A stretch of DNA of 64,000 bases. Source: Bacilli bacterium (lineage in GTDB: Bacteria > Bacillota_I > Bacilli_A > RFN20 > CAG-826). Below, in pieces: positions 18,285-58,798 of the stretch; the first letter of the stretch is position 1; each line of letters begins with the position of its first letter. A model generated the notes under the pieces. It was given only the letters and a program-made list of their open reading frames with translations. It did no database searches and had not been told where the DNA came from. The DNA lies in NCBI GenBank assembly GCA_034185265.1, contig JAXFZD010000018.1, forward strand, positions 13,388 to 77,387, read 5' to 3'. The position numbers and the translations under genes are program-made.

Positions 18285-19184
18285 ATGTACGATACAATTG
18301 TTATAGGTGGTGGCCCCGCAGGAATGACCGCAGCTTTATATTTAAGAAGAGCAAATAAAACAGTTTTAATTATCGAAAAAGACGCTATTGGAGGACAAAT
18401 TGCCGAATCTCCTAGATTAGAAAACTTCCCTTCAATCTCTTCTATCTCAGGCATGGATTTTGCTAATAATTTATTTGAGCAAATCATGAACTTAGGAGCC
18501 GAATTAGAAATTGACGAAGTTAAAGAAGTAAATAAAAATAATGATAGCTTCACTGTTATTACCAAATATGGCAGATTTGAATCTAAAACCATCGTAATTG
18601 CTACTGGCTGCAAACATAGAAAACTAGGAATTGAAGGCGAAGATAGACTTGCTGGAAAAGGAGTTTCCTACTGTGCTGTTTGTGATGGAGCTTTCTATAA
18701 AGATAAAGATGTAGTTCTTATTGGAGATGCAAATACTGCCTGCCAATACGCTATTTCTTTAGCAGAAACTAGCAAAAACGTTTATTTAATCACCTTATTT
18801 GATAAATTCTTTGCTGATCAAATTCTTGTTGATAGAATTAAAAATCTTCCTAACGTATTTGTTTCTCATAACATGAATTCTATTTCTTTTAACGGAGAAA
18901 ACGCATTGGAATCCGTTACATTTAGAAATACTCAAACTAATGAAATAAAGACAATTCCTTGTGAAGGAGCTTTTGTTGCCATCGGACAAATTCCTTGCAA
19001 CGAAATCTTCTCTAAGTTTGTTGAACTAGAAAAAGGATTTATTGTAACTAACGAGCAAATGGAAACTTCTACTCCAAAAATCTATGCTGTAGGAGATTGC
19101 AGAGTTAAAAACGTTAGACAAGTAATAACTGCAACTAATGACGGAGCTATCGCAGCGCTATCTATAATTAATAAATTAAATTAA
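18285..19184 (+). CDS. trxB: Thioredoxin reductase
   Basis: IGGGPAGMTAA, GVSYCAVCDG redox CXXC, IYAVGD...RQVITA. Confidence 0.92.
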   Translation: MYDTIVIGGGPAGMTAALYLRRANKTVLIIEKDAIGGQIAESPRLENFPSISSISGMDFANNLFEQIMNLGAELEIDEVKEVNKNNDSFTVITKYGRFESKTIVIATGCKHRKLGIEGEDRLAGKGVSYCAVCDGAFYKDKDVVLIGDANTACQYAISLAETSKNVYLITLFDKFFADQILVDRIKNLPNVFVSHNMNSISFNGENALESVTFRNTQTNEIKTIPCEGAFVAIGQIPCNEIFSKFVELEKGFIVTNEQMETSTPKIYAVGDCRVKNVRQVITATNDGAIAALSIINKLN

Positions 19185-19876
19185 TTATCGTAGCCTCTTA
19201 AAGAAGCATATTTAACAAAGGGATTCACTATATCAAGGAATTCCTTTGCTTTTTTTAAATCAACTTCATGTAATCCTTCTTTAATAGTGTTTCGATCAAT
19301 AAATTTTTGTAAGAAATATTTCTCACTTCCTTCAAGCCACTCTGCAATATCTTTTATATCACTAAAAGAATGGAATTCTTCAATTAAAGTTGTTCTAAAT
19401 TCATAAGGAACGTGTCCTTCTTTTAGAAAAGAAACCGATTCATCTATTCGCGTAAGATCAACAAAATCTAAACCTACTGTTTGAGTGTAATTCTTCTTAG
19501 AATTCTTTATATCCATAGCGACATAATCTACTAACTTCTTATTAACTAAGTCTTTAAGAATTTTAGGATTATATCCATTTGTATCTAATTTAACTTTATA
19601 TCCTAAAGCTTTTATTGCTTTAATCTTTTCTTCTAAATCATCTAAAAGAGTTGGCTCTCCTCCAGTTATAGTTACTCCTTCAAGAATGCCTTTTCTTTTT
19701 TCTAAATAACTTAAAATATCTTCAAAAGGAATTTCTTTAGCCTCTTTTGGATGAACAACTAAAGAAGAATTATGACAAAAAGGACATCTAAATTGGCACC
19801 TACATGTGAATAAAGTAGCTCCAATTACAGAGTCATAATCAACTAAGGATAGTTTTTCAAATCCTACAAATTCCAC
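19181..19876 (-). CDS. nrdG: Anaerobic RNR activating radical-SAM enzyme
   Basis: CQFRCPFCHN (CX3CX2C), GVTITGGEPT, KLDTNG, VAMDIK, EFRTT; adjacent to nrdD. Confidence 0.88.
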   Translation of the reverse strand: MEFVGFEKLSLVDYDSVIGATLFTCRCQFRCPFCHNSSLVVHPKEAKEIPFEDILSYLEKRKGILEGVTITGGEPTLLDDLEEKIKAIKALGYKVKLDTNGYNPKILKDLVNKKLVDYVAMDIKNSKKNYTQTVGLDFVDLTRIDESVSFLKEGHVPYEFRTTLIEEFHSFSDIKDIAEWLEGSEKYFLQKFIDRNTIKEGLHEVDLKKAKEFLDIVNPFVKYASLRGYDN

Positions 19877-51957: not shown

Positions 51958-53457
51958 TTAGAATCTATAAATCTTTGAATATTTGTTATTTAGATATTCT
52001 AGGAAGGCTTTAGGTGAAAGGTCTTCTCCTGTAATTTCTTTTAACCATTCTTTTGGTGTAAGAAGATTTGCATGAATGAATACATGATTTTTTAGCCAAT
52101 CTTTAATTGCGGCAAAATTACCTTCTTCTACGTATTTATTAAATGGAATTTCTTTCTTCATGGTTTGTAAATACATTGCGTTATAACAGTTACCTAGCGA
52201 ATAAGAAGGGAAATAGCCAAATCCGCTTGACCAGTGAACATCTTGCAATACTCCTACTGAATCATTAGGAACATCTACACCTAAATATTCTTTATATAAA
52301 GAGTTCCATTTAGCGGGAATATCATCTAATTTAACTTGGTTATGACATATAAGCTTTTCGATTTCATAACGAATTATAATGTGTAAAGCATAAGTAACTT
52401 CATCAGCTTCGGTTCTAATTAAAGAAGGTTTAACTATATTTACTGCTTCATAAAGTTCTTCCTCACTTACATCAGGGAATTCTTCTTTAAAAATTTCTTT
52501 AAATTTTGGATAAATAAGATGGATGTATTCTCTACTTCTACCGATTACATTTTCATAAAATCTAGAAACAGATTCGTGCATTCCACTAGTTATGTAATCG
52601 TTAATGAAATGTTCATAATCTTCATCTCTTTCATTTTGCATAAATATCGCATGCCCACCTTCGTGAATAGTAGAGAAAATAGAAGAAACAAACTGATTTT
52701 CATAATAATGAGTTGTGACTCTAGCGTCATTTTTCGCTACATCCATAGTAAAAGGATGTTCAGTTGTAGTTAAGGCCCCTCGAGAAAAGTCATATCCGTT
52801 AAGTTCTAATAAATAACGTGAAAATGCTTCTTGCTTATGAACTGGAACATGTCTATCCAAGAAATCTTCTCTAATTACATGCTTAGAATTTTTTATCTTA
52901 TTTAGTAATTCTAATAAACCTTCTTTAAGTTCAGCAAAAAATGGATCTAAATCTTCTTGAAGCAAACCTTCTTCATGGTCATCTAGAAGAGAATCATAAT
53001 AATCATCAAATTTATTTTCTCTATAAGAAACTTCTTCCTTTTGAATAGAAATTATTTTCTTTAAGGAATCTTTAAATAAAGAGAAATCACTGCTGTTTTT
53101 AGCATCAAACCAGTCGCTATATGCCTTAGAAAAGATTGCAGATCTCTTTAAATTAAATTCAGGAGTTATATTCTTTTCTTTAAGATATTTCTTGTAAAGT
53201 TTATCAATTAAGGCCTGATCTGCAGGGTTTTTGAGTTCTTCTTTATGATTATTAAGATCTACAATGAGTTTTTTAGTTTCTTCGTTATTAAGAATTTTAA
53301 ATAGTTCATTATCGAGAAAATTTAGAACATCGCTTTCTTCTTCTCTACCTTTTTCAGGAACAATAGTTTCAAAATCAAAATAGATGATACCTAAAGCGTG
53401 TCTATATAACTTTGCTAATTTTAATGTTTCTTTAAGTTTGTTTAGTTTTTCTTCCAT
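51958..53457 (-). CDS. M32 carboxypeptidase (carboxypeptidase Taq-like)
   Basis: HPF, HEGGH, HESVS, IRTEADE, QDVHW, GYFPSY. Confidence 0.95.
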   Translation of the reverse strand: MEEKLNKLKETLKLAKLYRHALGIIYFDFETIVPEKGREEESDVLNFLDNELFKILNNEETKKLIVDLNNHKEELKNPADQALIDKLYKKYLKEKNITPEFNLKRSAIFSKAYSDWFDAKNSSDFSLFKDSLKKIISIQKEEVSYRENKFDDYYDSLLDDHEEGLLQEDLDPFFAELKEGLLELLNKIKNSKHVIREDFLDRHVPVHKQEAFSRYLLELNGYDFSRGALTTTEHPFTMDVAKNDARVTTHYYENQFVSSIFSTIHEGGHAIFMQNERDEDYEHFINDYITSGMHESVSRFYENVIGRSREYIHLIYPKFKEIFKEEFPDVSEEELYEAVNIVKPSLIRTEADEVTYALHIIIRYEIEKLICHNQVKLDDIPAKWNSLYKEYLGVDVPNDSVGVLQDVHWSSGFGYFPSYSLGNCYNAMYLQTMKKEIPFNKYVEEGNFAAIKDWLKNHVFIHANLLTPKEWLKEITGEDLSPKAFLEYLNNKYSKIYRF

Positions 53458-53731
53458 TTTCTTCTCCCTGTCTTTTTAAAGTTGATTATTCTATCACATT
53501 AAATTTATTTAGGAAGAAAAGTACGTATAAACTATCTTATATTATCTTTTATAAGAAATGTCTTTACTCCTATATTCTCTATATTCGTTTTCTACATTAG
53601 AAGCAAAAATATTATCAACTGATTCGAAGTAACTAAAAGAAGGGGCTGTTAATAAACCTATAAAAAAGTCATTAATAAAGGCTAAGACATAATCTCTACA
53701 TACTTTGTCGTTTTCTCGCCTGTTCGCAAAT

Positions 53732-53756
53732 AAAAAACCGAGATTTTACACTCGGT
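53732..53756 (-). terminator. Intrinsic terminator after peptide gene 1
   Basis: ACCGAG-attttaca-CTCGGT with an A-run; related copies near 54133, 54906, 55451 and 56022. Confidence 0.75.
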
Positions 53757-53777
53757 CATGATTAAATAATTAAAGTA

Positions 53778-54071
53778 TTAATGTGGGCAGTAATTATCTC
53801 CCCATTTGTGGCCACAACTTTTACAAGTGGATATATTGCCGTCTTTTACAACATTGTTACTACCACATTTTGGGCAATCAAACGGATTGACTTTATCGCC
53901 AATATCGGAAATAACGCTACATGCGCCTCCGCCAGCGACAACTTTTAGTTGTTCATCAGTAAGTTCAACGCCTTCTTCTTTTGCTAATGCTAAAAGTTCT
54001 TCATGATTTTTGCACTCTTTTACTTTAGCGATTTGTTCTTCAGTTAAACCTTTTAGTAATTCTTTTTCCAT
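53778..54071 (-). CDS. Nif11-like leader / zinc-ribbon peptide 1
   Basis: MEKELLKGLTEEQIAKVK...ELTDEQLKVVAGG leader; core CPKCGS...CKSCGHKW; AAGGAG RBS. Confidence 0.85.
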   Translation of the reverse strand: MEKELLKGLTEEQIAKVKECKNHEELLALAKEEGVELTDEQLKVVAGGGACSVISDIGDKVNPFDCPKCGSNNVVKDGNISTCKSCGHKWGDNYCPH

Positions 54072-54096
54072 TTTCAAGTTCTCCTTTATTAGTTAT

Positions 54097-54131
54097 ATGT
54101 TATCACAGGGTTTGTCACAAATGTGCCACAA
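54097..54131 (-). promoter_or_regulatory. Conserved promoter box, copy 1
   Basis: TTGTGGCAcatTTGTGACA, 7 bp, TGaTAACAT. Confidence 0.75.
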
Positions 54132-54210
54132 TAAACCGAGATATTTCATTCTGTTTAATTTTGTAAAGTAATTTATTTTTTTCTGATTAAAAACTTAGTT
54201 AGTGCAGATA

Positions 54211-54495
54211 TTATTTATTAACAATCCAAACAAAACCACAATCTTTACAGGTGTTATTCCACCATTCTGCAATAGAATTTTCATTATATTTGGTTTTTAT
54301 GCTGCGAGAACCGCATTTTGGGCAGATAAAAGTTGGTGTGCTTGTGCAAATTCCACCATTAACAGCTTCAAGTTGTTCTTCGGTGAGTTTAATATCTTCT
54401 TCTTTGGCTAAGTTCAATAACTCTTCTTGATTCTTACATGCTTTGACTTTAGCGATTTGTTCTTCGGTTAAACCTTTTAGTAATTCTTTTTTCAT
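54211..54495 (-). CDS. Nif11-like leader / zinc-ribbon peptide 2
   Basis: Leader ending LTEEQLEAVNGG; core CPKCGS...CKDCGFVW; AAGGAG RBS. Confidence 0.85.
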   Translation of the reverse strand: MKKELLKGLTEEQIAKVKACKNQEELLNLAKEEDIKLTEEQLEAVNGGICTSTPTFICPKCGSRSIKTKYNENSIAEWWNNTCKDCGFVWIVNK

Positions 54496-54575
54496 TTTCT
54501 AGTTCTCCTTTATTTGAAGTAATTTATTTTGTTAGATAAATCTTTTTGTACGATTCTAATACGTCCGTGTTTATA

Positions 54576-54845
54576 TTATAAAGACCACTCGTGACCACAT
54601 TGATTACATTTATAAGATGAGCAACCACTCACTTGATAAATTGGCAATTTTCTATAATCTTTTGAACCACATGCTGGACATTTAAAACTTGAGAAACATC
54701 CACCACCATTAACAGCTTCAAGTTGTTCGTCAGTAAGTTCAATACCTTCTTGTTTAACTAAGGCCAAAAATTCTTCTTGATTCTTACAAGCTTTAACTTT
54801 AGCGACTTGTTCTTTAGTTAAACCTTTTAATAGTTCCTTTTTCAT
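54576..54845 (-). CDS. Nif11-like leader / zinc-ribbon peptide 3
   Basis: Leader ending ELTDEQLEAVNGG; core CPACGS...CNQCGHEW. Confidence 0.85.
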   Translation of the reverse strand: MKKELLKGLTKEQVAKVKACKNQEEFLALVKQEGIELTDEQLEAVNGGGCFSSFKCPACGSKDYRKLPIYQVSGCSSYKCNQCGHEWSL

Positions 54846-54870
54846 ATCAAAGTTCTCCTTTGTTGGTTAT

Positions 54871-54905
54871 ATGTTATCACAGGGTTTGTCACAAATGTGC
54901 CACAA
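54871..54905 (-). promoter_or_regulatory. Conserved promoter box, copy 2 (identical to copy 1)
   Basis: TTGTGGCAcatTTGTGACA, 7 bp, TGaTAACAT. Confidence 0.75.
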
Positions 54906-54938
54906 AAAACCGAGCAATGACCGGTTATACTCGTTTGT

Positions 54939-55223
54939 TCAATTGTAATTTTCAATTTTATATCCACAGCTTTGACAGATATAATAGGTACCTTTGTCTT
55001 TAATATTATTACTACCACATCTTGGACAATCATATGGATTGATATAATCTCCAAAATCTGAAATAGCGCTACAAGCACCTCCACCACTAATGGCAGATAA
55101 TTGTTCTTCGGTTAATTCGATATCTTCTTCTTTTGCAAGTTTTAAAAGTTCTTCGTGATTTTTACATGCTTTAACTTTTGCAATTTGATCTCTGGTTAAA
55201 CCTTTTAATAATTCTTTTTTCAT
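54939..55223 (-). CDS. Nif11-like leader / zinc-ribbon peptide 4
   Basis: Start MKKELL at 55223 behind AAGGAG; leader ending ELTEEQLSAISGG; core CPRCGS...CQSCGY. Confidence 0.85.
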   Translation of the reverse strand: MKKELLKGLTRDQIAKVKACKNHEELLKLAKEEDIELTEEQLSAISGGGACSAISDFGDYINPYDCPRCGSNNIKDKGTYYICQSCGYKIENYN

Positions 55224-55246
55224 TTTCAAGTTCTCCTTTGCTAAAC

Positions 55247-55452
55247 ATATCTTATCACTATGGTTGCCACAAAAGTGCCACAAGAAAAGACCTCGTAAGA
55301 TGCCTAATCTATACTGGATAAGTCGTTTTGTCCAACTTCGGATAAGTGACTTTGGACGACGACAGTAGCTGTAGTTACACAAACTCACTTATCAAGAATT
55401 GCACAAAAGTCTCTATCCGTATTATGTCGTGATTTGATTCATTCGCGAACAA
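55247..55452. repeat. ~206-bp intergenic repeat, copy A (includes promoter box 55249-55283)
   Basis: Nearly identical to 55814-56020; promoter TTGTGGCActtTTGTGGCA, 7 bp, TGaTAAGAT. Confidence 0.9.
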
Positions 55453-55473
55453 AAACCGAGATATTTCACTCGG
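55451..55473 (-). terminator. Intrinsic terminator after peptide gene 5
   Basis: AAAAACCGAG-atatttca-CTCGG. Confidence 0.75.
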
Positions 55474-55506
55474 CTTTTCAATTGATTAAATTTAAAAATA
55501 GATAAC

Positions 55507-55791
55507 TTAGTCGGTGGATTTAATATTAAATTCTCTACCACAATCTTTGCACTTAAAGATGCTAACTTTATTACCAGAGTATTTGTTTTTAACATTAGTG
55601 CTTCCACATGATGGGCATGGCGGACAATTATCTGTGTTAGAACACGCTCCACCATTAACAGCTTCTAGTTGTTCGCTAGTGAGTTCCAAATCTTCTTGTT
55701 TAGCTAAAGCCAACAATTCTTCATGATTCTTACATGCCTTAACTTTGGCGATCTGTTCGTTAGTTAAACCTTTTAATAATTCTTTTTTCAT
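55507..55791 (-). CDS. Nif11-like leader / zinc-ribbon peptide 5
   Basis: Leader ending ELTSEQLEAVNGG; core CPPCPSCGS...CKDCGREF. Confidence 0.85.
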   Translation of the reverse strand: MKKELLKGLTNEQIAKVKACKNHEELLALAKQEDLELTSEQLEAVNGGACSNTDNCPPCPSCGSTNVKNKYSGNKVSIFKCKDCGREFNIKSTD

Positions 55792-55813
55792 GTTATGTAC
55801 TCCCTATTTATTT

Positions 55814-56020
55814 ATATCTTATCACTACGGTTGTCACAAAAGTGCCACAAGAAAAGACCTCACACGGAGGCCTCATCTATGTTGGATAAGTCGTTTTGTG
55901 CAAAACCGGATGAGTGACTTTGGACAACGGCAGTAGCTGTAGTTACACAAACTCATTTATCAAGAATTGCACAAAAGTCTCTATCCGTATTATGTCGTGT
56001 TTATAAGCATTCGCGAACAA
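55814..56020. repeat. ~207-bp intergenic repeat, copy B (includes promoter box 55816-55850)
   Basis: Nearly identical to 55247-55452; promoter TTGTGGCActtTTGTGACA, 7 bp, TGaTAAGAT. Confidence 0.9.
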
Positions 56021-56079
56021 GAAAAAACCGAACTTTTCCACTCAAAATTCATTCATCTAGCCGGGTTTTGCAGGGGTTT

Positions 56080-56598
56080 TTACAATTTTAGGTAAGCCGG
56101 CATCTCATCGCCTTCTTTGAAACTTTCCGGATATTCAACGAAACCAAAGGATGCGTAAAGGTTCTTGGCCGCTTCGTTCTCTAACTCGTAATAGAGTGTG
56201 ACATATGCCCCTGGTCCGGCAGGCTGAGAACGGAAGAATTCGAGGATTTGTTGTAATGCCTCTTTTCCATAGCCGCGTCTTTGGTGGTGGCGGTCAATCA
56301 TAAGGCGCGCAATATGGTAAGAAGACTTGATGAAGGGAATCGGATTATCCTCTAAATAGGAATCGCGATCTCCAAAATAGCAAAGCAAGGTAAAACCGAC
56401 GATCTTCTTCCCGAAATAAATAGCAAAGGGCCAAGTCGGAACATTCTCCGTGGTGTTGAGATAAGCATGGGCCAAACTAAGCGTATTGGTCGCGATGAAA
56501 TTTCTTTGTTCTTTGTTCACTTGGAGGTGGATGACCCTCCAATAGTTATCCCATGTAACCTATTCCAAATGGATTTTAGGGGTTTCTTGTGTTTTCAT
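56080..56598 (-). pseudogene. GNAT acetyltransferase (spermidine N-acetyltransferase-like) with in-frame TAG at codon 13
   Basis: MKTQETPKIHLE*VTWDNYWRVIHLQVNKEQRNF...RLMIDRHHQRRGYG...NEAAKNLYASFGF; TAG at 56562-56560; visibly GC-richer than neighbours. Confidence 0.75.
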
Positions 56599-57016: not shown

Positions 57017-57916
57017 CTATAGCGAATTATCTCCATCCAAAATACACTTCAACTCTTCTTTTACATATGCAATATCGCTATTAGATAATAATGGAATAAT
57101 CTTTTGAATTTGGTTTGCGGTTTTATTCCACCACTGCAGTTTCTCTAAAAGCTCAATCGTTTCATCATCAAATCTTTTTCTAATAACTCTTGCCGGATTG
57201 CCTACCACAACTGAATATGGAGGAATATCAGAGGCCACTACTGCATTAGCCCCAATAATACATCCGTCCCCAACATGCACACCTGGAAGGAATGTGACGT
57301 TTTGCCCAATCCAAACATCGTTGCCAATAACCGTGTCACCCTTATAAGCCAAATCTTCTTTTTTGGGGGGATCTTGTTTCCAACCATTAAATATATAAAA
57401 AGGGTAAGTAGATACCGAATTCATTTGATGATTTGCGCCGTTCATAATGAACTCTACTCCTTTGCCTATTTGGCAAAACTTGCCAATGATCAATTTATCA
57501 CCGATAAAATCATAATGATGAGTGACATGTCTTTGGAAATTCTCTCCATCAAAATAAGTATACTCACCAACGGTAATGTTTGGGTTAGCAATCACTGTTG
57601 GTTTGACATACACCACACTTTCATCACGAGATTTTAATGGGTGAATCTTTCTCCAATCTGGTTTATCGGCTTTATCCGCTTTAATCATCAATTCTTCACT
57701 TTCAGCATCTGATAAATCTAAAAATTCGTTCGCATTAACTTTGAAAATGATTATTAATTTAAGAACAATATCAAAAGATATATCGGTTTGGCCTGTCTCT
57801 ATCTTATTAATCATCGATTTATGAGTGTAACCAAGAGCCTCTGCAAATTCTTGCTGAGTCATATTGTTTTCTAAACGAATCTTTTTGATTCTATCTCCTA
57901 ATACTTTGTACGCCAT
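57017..57916 (-). CDS. XRE HTH fused to Vat/CatB-family (streptogramin A-type) O-acetyltransferase
   Basis: IKKIRLENNMTQQEFAEALGY...INKIE.G HTH; HHYDFIGDKLIIGKFCQI...NGANH...STYPF...GDTVIGNDVWIG. Confidence 0.85.
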   Translation of the reverse strand: MAYKVLGDRIKKIRLENNMTQQEFAEALGYTHKSMINKIETGQTDISFDIVLKLIIIFKVNANEFLDLSDAESEELMIKADKADKPDWRKIHPLKSRDESVVYVKPTVIANPNITVGEYTYFDGENFQRHVTHHYDFIGDKLIIGKFCQIGKGVEFIMNGANHQMNSVSTYPFYIFNGWKQDPPKKEDLAYKGDTVIGNDVWIGQNVTFLPGVHVGDGCIIGANAVVASDIPPYSVVVGNPARVIRKRFDDETIELLEKLQWWNKTANQIQKIIPLLSNSDIAYVKEELKCILDGDNSL

Positions 57917-57928
57917 AAATGTCTCCTT

Positions 57929-57979
57929 TTTAATTTGATCGAATTCGACCCCTTAAACCCATCGAAATTGACCAGTTTA
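57929..57979. repeat. Two tandem copies of the kilA-N internal palindrome
   Basis: ATCGAATTCGAC (57938-57949) and ATCGAAATTGAC (57961-57972) with TTAAA-like flanks; compare GGGTCGAATTCGACCC at 58587-58602. Confidence 0.7.
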
Positions 57980-58798
57980 CTTCTTTTCAATCCTCTTTAA
58001 TGATTTAACATTATTCTTATTGAATAATTCTTTTTCTCTATTTGCTTCTTTATTAAGAAGAACTAGTCTTTCTTGCTGAGATAGTTTTTGAGCAATTAAC
58101 ATTGAGCTCAAATACTCAAGGTTGCTAAGAATCGCTAACTCAATAGTATTTGCGTAATCTCTGATATTGCCTTCTTTATTTTGATTCATATCTCTCCACT
58201 CTTTTGCGGTTTTACCAAACAGCGCAACATTTAATAAATCTGCTTCACTAGCGTAAATAAAACTCTTTTGTACATTTGTTAATTCAACAGGAACCAAATA
58301 TTCCTTAACAGCATCAGTATGAATGAGATAATTTAACTTTGTTAATAATCTCTTACCATTCCATTCAAGTTGTTCTGATTCTTGAACTTTTAATCTTTGG
58401 AACTCCTTGATGATGTATAGTTTTACTTCTGCAGAAATCCAAGACGCAAATTCAAGAGCAATATCGTGATGGGCAAAAGTACCACCATTTTTAGTTGGTT
58501 TTGTCCTAATTCCAATTGCATTAAATTCATTAATCCACCTAGTTGGTGACATAGTAAATGAATTCTTGCCAGACTCCGCTAATAGGGGGTCGAATTCGAC
58601 CCGGTTAAAATTTGGATTATTCAGCGTTTCCCAAATTCCAAGGAACTCTAGGGATGACCTAAGTCTCATCCAGTTTTTGACAACATCTTTAGGCTCTTTT
58701 GCGTTTTTAGCTCTTGCAATATCAGTAAGACTAATATAATCATCATCCCCAATACCTGTGACATTAATATCAATATTTTTAACAGTGATTTTATTCAT
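57977..58798 (-). CDS. KilA-N domain DNA-binding protein
   Basis: DYISLTDIAR, NWMR, EFLGIWE.LNNPNF..VEFD, GGTFAH.DIALEFASWIS. Confidence 0.9.
   Translation of the reverse strand: MNKITVKNIDINVTGIGDDDYISLTDIARAKNAKEPKDVVKNWMRLRSSLEFLGIWETLNNPNFNRVEFDPLLAESGKNSFTMSPTRWINEFNAIGIRTKPTKNGGTFAHHDIALEFASWISAEVKLYIIKEFQRLKVQESEQLEWNGKRLLTKLNYLIHTDAVKEYLVPVELTNVQKSFIYASEADLLNVALFGKTAKEWRDMNQNKEGNIRDYANTIELAILSNLEYLSSMLIAQKLSQQERLVLLNKEANREKELFNKNNVKSLKRIEKK

Follow-up and report, generated by a model that had tools for sequence, protein, structure and literature searches.

Tandem genes for Nif11-like-leader proteins with zinc-ribbon-like cores in a Bacilli bacterium, and a candidate radical SAM/SPASM maturation and export cluster on another contig

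Precursors with Nif11-type leaders are known as linear substrates of ring-forming enzymes. In the prochlorosin system, the ProcA precursor genes are dispersed in the genome, apart from those for ProcM and its C39 exporter, while the Blp (Streptococcus pneumoniae) and pln (Lactiplantibacillus plantarum) systems are pheromone-controlled class II bacteriocin regulons with direct repeats before the peptide operons. According to PMC6363468, ProcM of Prochlorococcus MIT9313 has 30 substrates, and the C39 domain LahT150 of Lachnospiraceae bacterium C6A11 cuts nine Nif11-type precursors in vitro whatever their core. Systems of the NHLP/Nif11 class use a paired ATP-binding cassette (ABC) exporter (TIGR03796, TIGR03797, and TIGR03794; Haft and co-workers 2010, cited in PMC6363468). 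Here, we analyzed a 64,000-nucleotide (nt) stretch of contig C18 of a Bacilli bacterium (this whole stretch is referred to as the window), in which five paralogous genes form an array on the minus strand (53778-55791). We consider it fairly probable that they are stand-alone precursors of a multi-precursor peptide system that is matured, exported, and controlled by genes on another contig. Most likely, they constitute a set of precursors that are processed in trans and then exported.

The genome that contains the window is a 1.17-Mb assembly (44 contigs; 87.6% complete). The five open reading frames of the array encode proteins of 89 to 97 amino acids (aa), numbered in the direction of transcription:

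55507..55791, minus strand: precursor gene 1, 94 aa, with the leader (residues 1-48) ending in GG (open reading frame and alignment). The core opens with ACSNTD, followed by CPPCPSCGS...CKDCG (alignment).
54939..55223, minus strand: precursor gene 2, 94 aa from an ATG within a longer GTG frame. The core is GACSAISDFGDYINPYD-CPRCGS...CQSCG (alignment).
54576..54845, minus strand: precursor gene 3, 89 aa, with the core GCFSSFK-CPACGS...CNQCG.
54211..54495, minus strand: precursor gene 4, 94 aa, with the core ICTSTPTFI-CPKCGS...CKDCG and no promoter motif of its own.
53778..54071, minus strand: precursor gene 5, 97 aa from an ATG (99 aa from an upstream TTG). The core is GACSVISDIGDKVNPFD-CPKCGS...CKSCGHKW (alignment).

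Alignment of the five proteins revealed 30 invariant positions in the leader (residues 1-48), including the terminal GG. Only 8 positions were invariant in the cores, and they spell two cysteine knuckles (C-P-x-C-G-S and C-x-x-C-G). The mean pairwise identity was 0.79 for the leaders and 0.28 for the cores. These data bear out the original prediction for this stretch, which described an array of five paralogues sharing a GG leader of about 48 aa and carrying divergent cores built on a CPxCGS...CxxCG scaffold. The slot after the second knuckle, which is mostly aromatic, is occupied in genes 1 to 5 by F, I, W, W, and W, respectively; the I had been assigned to "gene 4," which corresponds to 54939-55223, the fourth gene by plus-strand coordinates. 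Gene 2 is also the closest window paralogue of gene 5 (67-69% identity). The orthologous group of gene 5 is large and well conserved, with 119 further clusters among the matches listed (69-82% identical). A repeat search detected a 215-nt unit, consisting of the leader and the region upstream of it, in five copies with 63-84% identity. The array is therefore a real tandem duplication rather than a chance arrangement.

A tblastn search with the five proteins detected 12 paralogues in the genome: the 5 of the window, 6 on contig C25, and 1 on contig C9. The GG at the end of the leader was invariant in all 12. Seven paralogues thus lie outside the array. The C9 paralogue has a short core (GCSASTKNNRRKLEN) and lies inside a cluster of genes that are all on one strand:

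C9:38023-47788, one strand, in order: histidine kinase, response regulator, 397-aa protein, precursor, and 464-aa radical S-adenosylmethionine (SAM)/SPASM enzyme.
The same cluster, continued: 129-aa membrane protein, ABC exporter with a C39 peptidase domain (ABC1), and second ABC exporter (ABC2).

The assignments of the enzyme (Radical_SAM, 80.7 bits; SPASM, 34.7 bits) and of the peptidase domain of ABC1 (Peptidase_C39, 110.8 bits; cut-off, 22) came from family models. NHLM_micro_ABC1 and NHLM_micro_ABC2 were by far the best matches of ABC1 (836.4; cut-off, 853.3) and ABC2 (664.9; cut-off, 709.4), respectively. The match of the 129-aa membrane protein to the NHLP-system HlyD protein was confined to the first 65 residues of the latter. 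The 397-aa protein had no Pfam match and was HipA-like in the ESM Atlas (feature score, 0.98; structural template modeling score, ~0.8). Within the genome, SPASM was present on C9 alone, and Peptidase_C39 on C9 and C17 alone. The window encodes a single radical SAM protein (19181-19876), identified as NrdG, the activase of ribonucleotide reductase (196 bits; cut-off, 131). The absence of a maturase and of a peptidase-containing exporter from the 64 kb, as originally reported, was thus confirmed, and the view that such enzymes are encoded elsewhere was supported, given the cooccurrence described below. The puzzle of the missing maturase is resolved because the C9 cluster holds a radical SAM/SPASM enzyme and a C39 exporter beside a precursor with the same leader. 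No match to LanC_like (PF05147) or LanM (TIGR03897) was obtained in this 87.6% complete genome, but control genomes were equally silent, so that this negative carries no weight. The Peptidase_C39 match on C17 (C17:55756-56967) is partial (29.9 bits) and belongs to a 403-aa protein without ABC domains.

The six C25 precursor genes form a looser group (C25:19829-31586) among an IS3-type transposase pair, a YoeB/YefM-like toxin-antitoxin pair, GNAT acetyltransferases, and an XRE-hydrolase fusion; the transposase and toxin-antitoxin genes were named by eye, and the others by model scans. This region looks like a flexible genomic island.

We then asked how well the leader fits the described families. 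Pfam PF07862 (Nif11) scored 22.8, 20.6, 20.1, 15.2, and 24.1 bits for genes 1 to 5 (cut-off, 23.8), so that one of the five passes, and only the C-terminal half of the model was matched. NCBIfam TIGR03798 gave 13.0-20.2 bits (cut-off, 32.3), and none passes. Hence, of the proposed Nif11 leader, the double-glycine end and the Nif11 kind hold, while formal membership does so for one gene with one model; the window proteins are best called Nif11-like and appear to be divergent members of that kind. No family in an NCBIfam scan claimed the five proteins or gave them a curated functional name. Bacteriocin_IIc remained at 11.6-13.7 bits (cut-off, 27.1), leaving the class II bacteriocin model unmatched, and TIGR01847 reached 12.0-15.1 bits (cut-off, 15.7) in three of the five.

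Like the NHLP/Nif11 class, the present system has a long helical leader ending in GG, several paralogues with a shared leader and differing cores, an exporter pair whose best matches are NHLM_micro_ABC1 and NHLM_micro_ABC2, and a small protein resembling the start of HlyD. Unlike that class, its exporter scores lie just under the equivalog cut-offs, its leader fails TIGR03798 in all five proteins, its HlyD-like protein is cut down to 129 aa, and its core appears to be a zinc-ribbon-like mini-domain rather than a linear peptide. With the prochlorosins, it shares many precursor genes with Nif11-type leaders scattered away from one modifying enzyme and one C39 exporter. The prochlorosin enzyme, however, is a LanM lanthionine synthetase and not a radical SAM/SPASM enzyme, and the cores it modifies are linear Ser/Thr/Cys peptides. 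The lah system of PMC6363468 (LahA1-9 and LahT) resembles the present one in its Nif11-type double-glycine leaders, borne there by nine diverse cores encoded in one gene cluster, and the present family also occurs in rumen Lachnospiraceae; in contrast, lah is a lanthipeptide cluster, and the comparison covers leaders and cluster type but not core sequences.

To assess the distribution of precursors and enzyme, we drew 41 genomes: that containing the window, 24 congeneric genomes, and 16 representing other genera within the order. Because of their relatedness, cooccurrence among these genomes represents a pattern and not a statistical test. The precursor profile matched nine genomes, all of one genus, with up to 27 matches in a single genome. 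An orthologue of the radical SAM enzyme (72-77% identity) was present in eight genomes, all eight of which carry precursors. The ninth precursor genome (76% complete) had a single weak match to the leader only. Neither precursor nor enzyme was detected in the 16 genomes from other genera. The cluster order was kept in the six other species fetched, one of them with a rearrangement, and the HipA-like gene was present in four of the six. Two Lachnospiraceae records contained a zinc-ribbon precursor ~1.2 kb upstream of an enzyme orthologue with 65.6% identity. In these records, a sigma-factor-like gene between the two replaces the two-component system, and a gene for a 135-aa protein is also present.

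A search with gene 5 against a collection clustered at 90% identity detected 1012 proteins (E ≤ 0.001), named only "hypothetical protein" or by an automatic label of the Joint Genome Institute (JGI). When 1.84 billion representatives clustered at 50% identity were searched with a profile, 470 matched at E ≤ 1e-10 and 3149 at E ≤ 0.001. Among the best 150 profile matches, 96 were zinc-ribbon-like by pattern, ~13 more were so by eye, and ~22 had short cores; the remainder look truncated or frameshifted. Judged from these sequences, the family appears to be large and shared by rumen Bacilli and Lachnospiraceae. No description of it was found in the open full text that was searched (subscription journals and supplements were outside coverage). 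The earlier suggestion of a possibly undescribed peptide class agrees with the lack of a functional name in the libraries and sources searched.

These data bear on the possibility that the proteins are cytoplasmic zinc-ribbon proteins with a Nif11-like N-terminal domain (e.g., regulators or nucleic-acid binders) that are neither cut nor exported and resemble precursors only superficially. Zinc ribbons are normally intracellular, and the JGI automatic name of three homologues is [quoted passage not shown] We nevertheless regard this explanation as very unlikely, given the invariant GG at the leader end in 12 of 12 paralogues, the cooccurrence with the exporter and enzyme cluster (every one of the 8 enzyme-bearing genomes among the 41 holds precursors), and the presence of the same leader on the short-core peptide inside the C9 cluster. 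In addition, up to 27 matches per genome, tandem arrays, and divergent cores fit the usual picture of diversifying peptides that are secreted, rather than that of housekeeping factors.

For the wider gene context, a locus search seeded with gene 5 and restricted to a single genome from each species detected at least 291 loci. We kept 79 of these, from rumen-type assemblies labelled Erysipelotrichaceae, Bacilli, or Bacillales and six from Lachnospiraceae (including a Pseudobutyrivibrio record). The genes flanking the window array are metabolic or miscellaneous. No immunity-like gene or open reading frame for a small membrane protein was found in or beside the array (open reading frame list and flanking genes), which argues against a classical self-toxic bacteriocin. 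GNAT genes stand beside three precursor loci of the window's genome and were considered as immunity or modification partners; this candidate was rejected, as neighbor homologues occurred in 0 to 6 of the 79 related loci. The XRE-fusion, KilA-N, and M32 neighbors were likewise rejected as partners (0 to 5 of 79). Just upstream of the array, the window encodes an XRE helix-turn-helix domain fused to a hexapeptide-repeat acetyltransferase (57017-57916) and an adjoining KilA-N protein (57977-58798). Homologues of these two genes were found near precursors in 4 and 5 of the 79 loci, respectively, and the genes may be of mobile-element origin.

A direct-repeat motif precedes most precursor genes. 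A genome-wide scan with the pattern TGTGRYA-N4/5-TGTGRYA gave 23 hits, or ~17 distinct sites by count, against a chance expectation of less than 1 by rough reckoning. Ten of these sites precede 10 of the 12 precursor genes; others are located upstream of the HipA-like gene and of genes for large secreted proteins. The sites and the terminator-like hairpins of the array are as follows:

55832..55849, minus strand: direct-repeat promoter motif before gene 1, TGTGGCAC-N3-TGTGACA (genome-wide pattern scan).
55265..55282, minus strand: direct-repeat promoter motif before gene 2 (pattern scan).
54887..54904, minus strand: direct-repeat promoter motif before gene 3, with a third repeat (TGTGATA) one helical turn further on.
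54113..54130, minus strand: direct-repeat promoter motif before gene 5 (pattern scan).
53736..53757, minus strand: terminator-like hairpin and T-run after gene 5 (hairpin scan).
54908..54926, minus strand: terminator-like hairpin and T-run after gene 2, with the T-run abutting the promoter motif of gene 3.
55854..55874, minus strand: terminator-like hairpin lying just ahead of the gene 1 promoter motif.

The occurrence of the motif before every gene except gene 4, together with hairpins and T-runs between units, suggests that the array comprises four transcription units. Genes 3 and 4 would share one of these, probably as a two-gene transcript that begins with gene 3. Elsewhere among rumen Bacilli-type loci, the motif was present before 116 of 218 precursor genes, and in 110 cases it starts 57-61 nt ahead of the start codon. 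Conversely, 116 of the 127 motif hits in these loci precede precursors. None of the 16 Lachnospiraceae precursor genes had the TGTGRCA motif. This absence and the sigma-factor-like gene noted above suggest that the system came under different control when it moved from one of the two bacterial classes to the other. A sigma-54 reading of the motif was rejected, since the TGAC that follows TGGCAC after five bases mismatches the TTGC of the -12 element in the consensus. A sigma-70 scan showed no excess of sites (7 versus a mean of 9.7 in shuffled sequence).

The large secreted proteins whose genes have the motif upstream (C6:13820-15235, C25:24939-26339, C28:4662-6149, and C35:3703-5700) comprise three paralogues of ~470-495 aa with signal peptides and a fourth protein of 665 aa. 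The C25 protein, which was the one scanned, had a weak InlB B-repeat-like match alone. These proteins seem to belong to the same regulon as the precursors.

Part of the upstream region is itself repeated:

55299..55455, minus strand: non-coding 157-nt repeat upstream of gene 2, with a second copy at 55867-56023 upstream of gene 1 (89% identity).

Partial copies of this repeat are present elsewhere on C18 and on C25. An Rfam scan of 53300-56300 returned nothing at E ≤ 1; thus, the repeat is not a known RNA. A segmental duplication may have left it behind, or it may represent a small element with a mobile or regulatory role.

Bovine gut metatranscriptome contigs from three studies matched genes 5, 3, and 1 at ≥95% identity. 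Gene 5 was nearly covered in three of four RNA-library runs and partly covered in the fourth. Gene 3 was matched by a 302-nt contig in one run (54505-54806), and contigs of one run covered 227 and 100 nt of gene 1. These contigs are consistent with transcription and do not prove it, and intergenic stretches lacking contig coverage were given no weight in placing transcript ends.

With its double-glycine leaders, C39 ABC exporter, two-component system, direct repeats before peptide operons, and one short possible inducer peptide beside several longer effectors, the present system resembles Blp and pln. It differs from them in its 48-residue Nif11-like leaders and radical SAM enzyme, in the lack of immunity genes with the peptide genes, in a regulator without a LytTR match, and in the Bacteriocin_IIc scores given above. 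The response regulator has a receiver domain, and its output part, which has no LytTR match, looks by eye like an OmpR/SARP-type winged helix. Such domains bind direct repeats one helical turn apart.

We next characterized the cores by using 256 unique precursors with a complete leader, taken from the 79 loci and from loci fetched earlier. The first Cys stands 1-3 residues past the GG in 243 of the 256 precursors, in short-core and zinc-ribbon forms alike, and each of the four positions behind it is Ser or Thr in 39-56% of the precursors. Two CxxC pairs 13-25 residues apart were present in 231 members. Their knuckles are well conserved (knuckle 1, C-P-x-C-G-S, with Pro in 91%, Gly in 80%, and Ser in 63%; knuckle 2, C-x-x-C-G, with Gly in 78%), and an aromatic residue stands four places past the second knuckle in 205 of the 231 (W, 161; F, 39; Y, 5). 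Five or six cysteines were present in 225 of the 256 members. In about 14 members, the core is short and contains one Cys, its middle part is acidic or polar, and it terminates in a sequence such as HRKIDS or HRKIES; cores of this type are those found beside the enzyme. A second kind of short core (P0350, P0357, P0359, and P0382) is distinct from the HRKIDS type and has one Cys after the GG, followed by a long acidic stretch rich in Asp, Asn, and Lys and by the end P(I/V)(I/T/N)NPF.

All zinc-ribbon family models matched within the core, and all scored below their cut-offs. The best was PF08271 (Zn_Ribbon_TF), with 27.4 bits and, for gene 2, 26.3 bits (cut-off, 29); PF09723, PF08274, and other ribbon models scored lower, and the NCBIfam zinc-ribbon models were all below their cut-offs. 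We modeled gene 5 with AlphaFold2 (AF2) from a 48-row alignment (mean predicted local distance difference test score [pLDDT], 62; predicted template modeling score, 0.31). In this model, the leader consists of three helices, residues 47-61 (the GG and the Cys-bearing tail) have a pLDDT of <50, and residues 61-90 form three strands (block-mean pLDDT, 64-80) with the knuckles on beta hairpins. Local Foldseek matches were obtained to the Cys4 zinc ribbons of L37ae, a PhnA-like protein, and TFIIB (~1 Å over 27-30 residues), and the search against PDB gave no match at E ≤ 0.001 (best, 0.25). A ribbon-like fold is thus modestly supported by the predicted model. The zinc-ribbon core of the original prediction stands as ribbon-like in its knuckles and local structural matches, and it falls short of every zinc-ribbon family model.

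Alternatively, the four ribbon cysteines might be thioether donors for the radical SAM/SPASM enzyme, giving a multiply bridged hairpin without zinc, as in sactipeptides and ranthipeptides. The model scores just given are in line with this, as are the five or six cysteines of most cores, the fact that the genome's sole peptide-type maturase belongs to the radical SAM enzymes and carries a full SPASM domain, and the presence of the thioether-forming SkfB (E = 4e-8, the best match) and CteB (E = 5e-4) among its nearest solved relatives. The knuckles, however, have the classical metal-binding form (C-P-x-C-G in 80-91% and C-x-x-C-G in 78%), the aromatic residue past the second knuckle is placed as in folded ribbons, and the modeled hairpins superpose on solved Cys4 ribbons at ~1 Å. 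Moreover, the short-core substrates beside the enzyme have one Cys, so the enzyme would need no ribbon Cys. We consider bridging of the ribbon cysteines quite improbable.

The present system nonetheless shares with the sactipeptides and ranthipeptides (SkfA/SkfB, CteA/CteB [thermocellin], and PapA/PapB [freyrasin]) a radical SAM/SPASM enzyme, here putatively leader-dependent, and Cys-bearing cores. A radical SAM/SPASM maturase is tied to the precursors here, whereas its membership in a named thioether-forming family was not supported by any model: PapB gave 72.4 bits (cut-off, 340; E = 3.8e-20), StsB gave 74.5 (cut-off, 625), and rSAM_nif11_3 gave 71.8 (cut-off, 725). The 1657 relatives of the enzyme at E ≤ 1e-20 are all generically named. 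Unlike in those systems, the only universally conserved candidate donor is one Cys at the cleavage site, the remaining cysteines sitting in metal-knuckle motifs. We know of no HipA-like kinase partner in sactipeptide or ranthipeptide systems. Overall, the system appears to differ from those described in having a maturase outside the named families, a HipA-like partner, a zinc-ribbon-like core, and a single conserved Cys at the cleavage site.

Selection on the core was evaluated with 14 gene 5 orthologues from different assemblies. The ratio of nonsynonymous to synonymous substitution rates (dN/dS; pairwise Nei-Gojobori, with dS of ~1.1 being close to saturation) was 0.13 for the leader, 0.17 for the linker/tail, and 0.18 for the ribbon. 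Among orthologues, purifying selection acts on the core, and the tail is as constrained as the ribbon. The diversity therefore sits between paralogous groups, each of which is conserved. The hypervariable loop of the original prediction accordingly holds between paralogues and fails within gene 5 orthologues, in which the ribbon is constrained (~0.18). The purifying selection on the core, the post-GG Cys, the seven additional paralogues, the common promoter motif, and the short-core relatives beside the maturase go beyond that prediction.

Another explanation is that the enzyme modifies only its short-core neighbor, perhaps a pheromone, and that the zinc-ribbon proteins are cut by the C39 domain and exported unmodified, like class II bacteriocins. 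In the window's genome and in four of the six other species, the neighbor of the enzyme (or, in the rearranged cluster, of the export genes) is indeed a short-core peptide with a ...RKI(D/E)S-type end. The kinase and response regulator of the cluster, together with the promoter motif common to 10 of 12 precursors, also resemble the Blp and plantaricin regulons in their layout. According to PMC6363468, C39 domains tolerate any core; by the same source, such a domain needs ~13 leader residues, whereas all 48 are conserved here. Further points against export alone are that the post-GG Cys (243 of 256) and the Ser/Thr stretch are common to short-core and zinc-ribbon forms, that the linker bearing these residues is under purifying selection (dN/dS, 0.17), and that a zinc-ribbon precursor lies close to the enzyme in Lachnospiraceae. 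We regard export without modification as unlikely, though it deserves more weight than the two explanations considered above.

Our preferred reading thus remains that of precursors processed in trans, for which we infer cleavage, export, modification, metal binding, a link between regulator and motif, and an antagonistic or signalling role. Direct results of the analysis are the gene family with its copy number, the cluster, the cooccurrence, the motif, and the purifying selection. Each product would carry a 48-residue, three-helix Nif11-like leader, which is probably read by an N-terminal extension of the single radical SAM/SPASM enzyme; we take this extension to be a leader-recognition domain. 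The enzyme probably acts on the conserved Cys and the Ser/Thr-rich stretch right behind the GG. This stretch is the sole core feature common to both forms and is predicted to be disordered, which makes it the likeliest modification site. A complex prediction for the enzyme and precursor 5 scored 0.01 against a mark of 0.32, which speaks neither for nor against binding. The HipA-like kinase, encoded beside the enzyme, may act on the same Cys/Ser/Thr stretch. Speculatively, the presence of this neighbor and of a Ser at the C terminus of most short cores is reminiscent of certain lasso peptides, whose last Ser is phosphorylated by a kinase.

The pair of ABC exporters would then cleave after the GG with its C39 peptidase and export the core, which would consist of a short modified N-terminal tail and a Cys4 zinc-ribbon-like mini-domain of ~30 residues. 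The ribbon would be a folded passenger domain with knuckles of the classical metal-binding form. The short-core relatives beside the enzyme would be tail only and may be the system's own signal. Most likely, the response regulator and kinase of the cluster drive all precursor genes through the TGTGRCA direct repeats ~60 nt before the starts. In the anoxic rumen, Cys4-metal sites could last outside the cell where disulfides would not. As to function, antagonism, signalling, and metal handling by the exported products are all speculative. The analysis yielded no evidence for the RNA polymerase target suggested in the original prediction or for any one activity.

Several observations weigh against this reading. 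The Nif11 models reach their cut-offs barely (PF07862, in one of five proteins) or not at all (TIGR03798), every zinc-ribbon model falls short of its own, and the AF2 model has modest confidence, with no Foldseek match at E ≤ 0.001. The enzyme appears to be far from every named maturase family, and because a short-core peptide is encoded immediately beside it in Bacilli-type clusters, it might not accept the zinc-ribbon forms as substrates. The motif also precedes genes for large secreted proteins, indicating a regulon wider than the peptides, and no immunity-like gene accompanies the array. In addition, the genome is a draft, the 256-precursor sample is biased toward relatives of gene 5 (the seed of the search), and the RNA-library contigs may carry DNA.

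More tentatively, the family could represent a new class of secreted "zinc-stapled" mini-proteins of strict anaerobes, in which a tail modified by a radical SAM enzyme (perhaps with a HipA-like kinase) is fused to a Cys4 metal ribbon. In the reducing rumen, this ribbon would do the structural work of the disulfides found in defensins and in many bacteriocins of aerobic settings. The diversified loops and tails would be the target-binding surfaces of an arsenal or signal set under a peptide-sensing two-component system. We hold this to be possible, with the odds rather against it.

The family is large, apparently expressed, and experimentally tractable, its chemistry and function being wholly inferred. 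If the proposal is true, a folded, metal-binding exported core would blur the distinction between a modified peptide and a small secreted protein, and anaerobes would have a route to stabilize extracellular peptides where disulfides fail. The scale is considerable, with 12 genes in a genome of just 1.17 Mb. A maturase outside the named families, with a conserved HipA-like kinase neighbor, makes new peptide chemistry possible. For annotation, the case illustrates how leader identity, cooccurrence, and a shared promoter motif can link "orphan" precursor arrays to a distant cluster.

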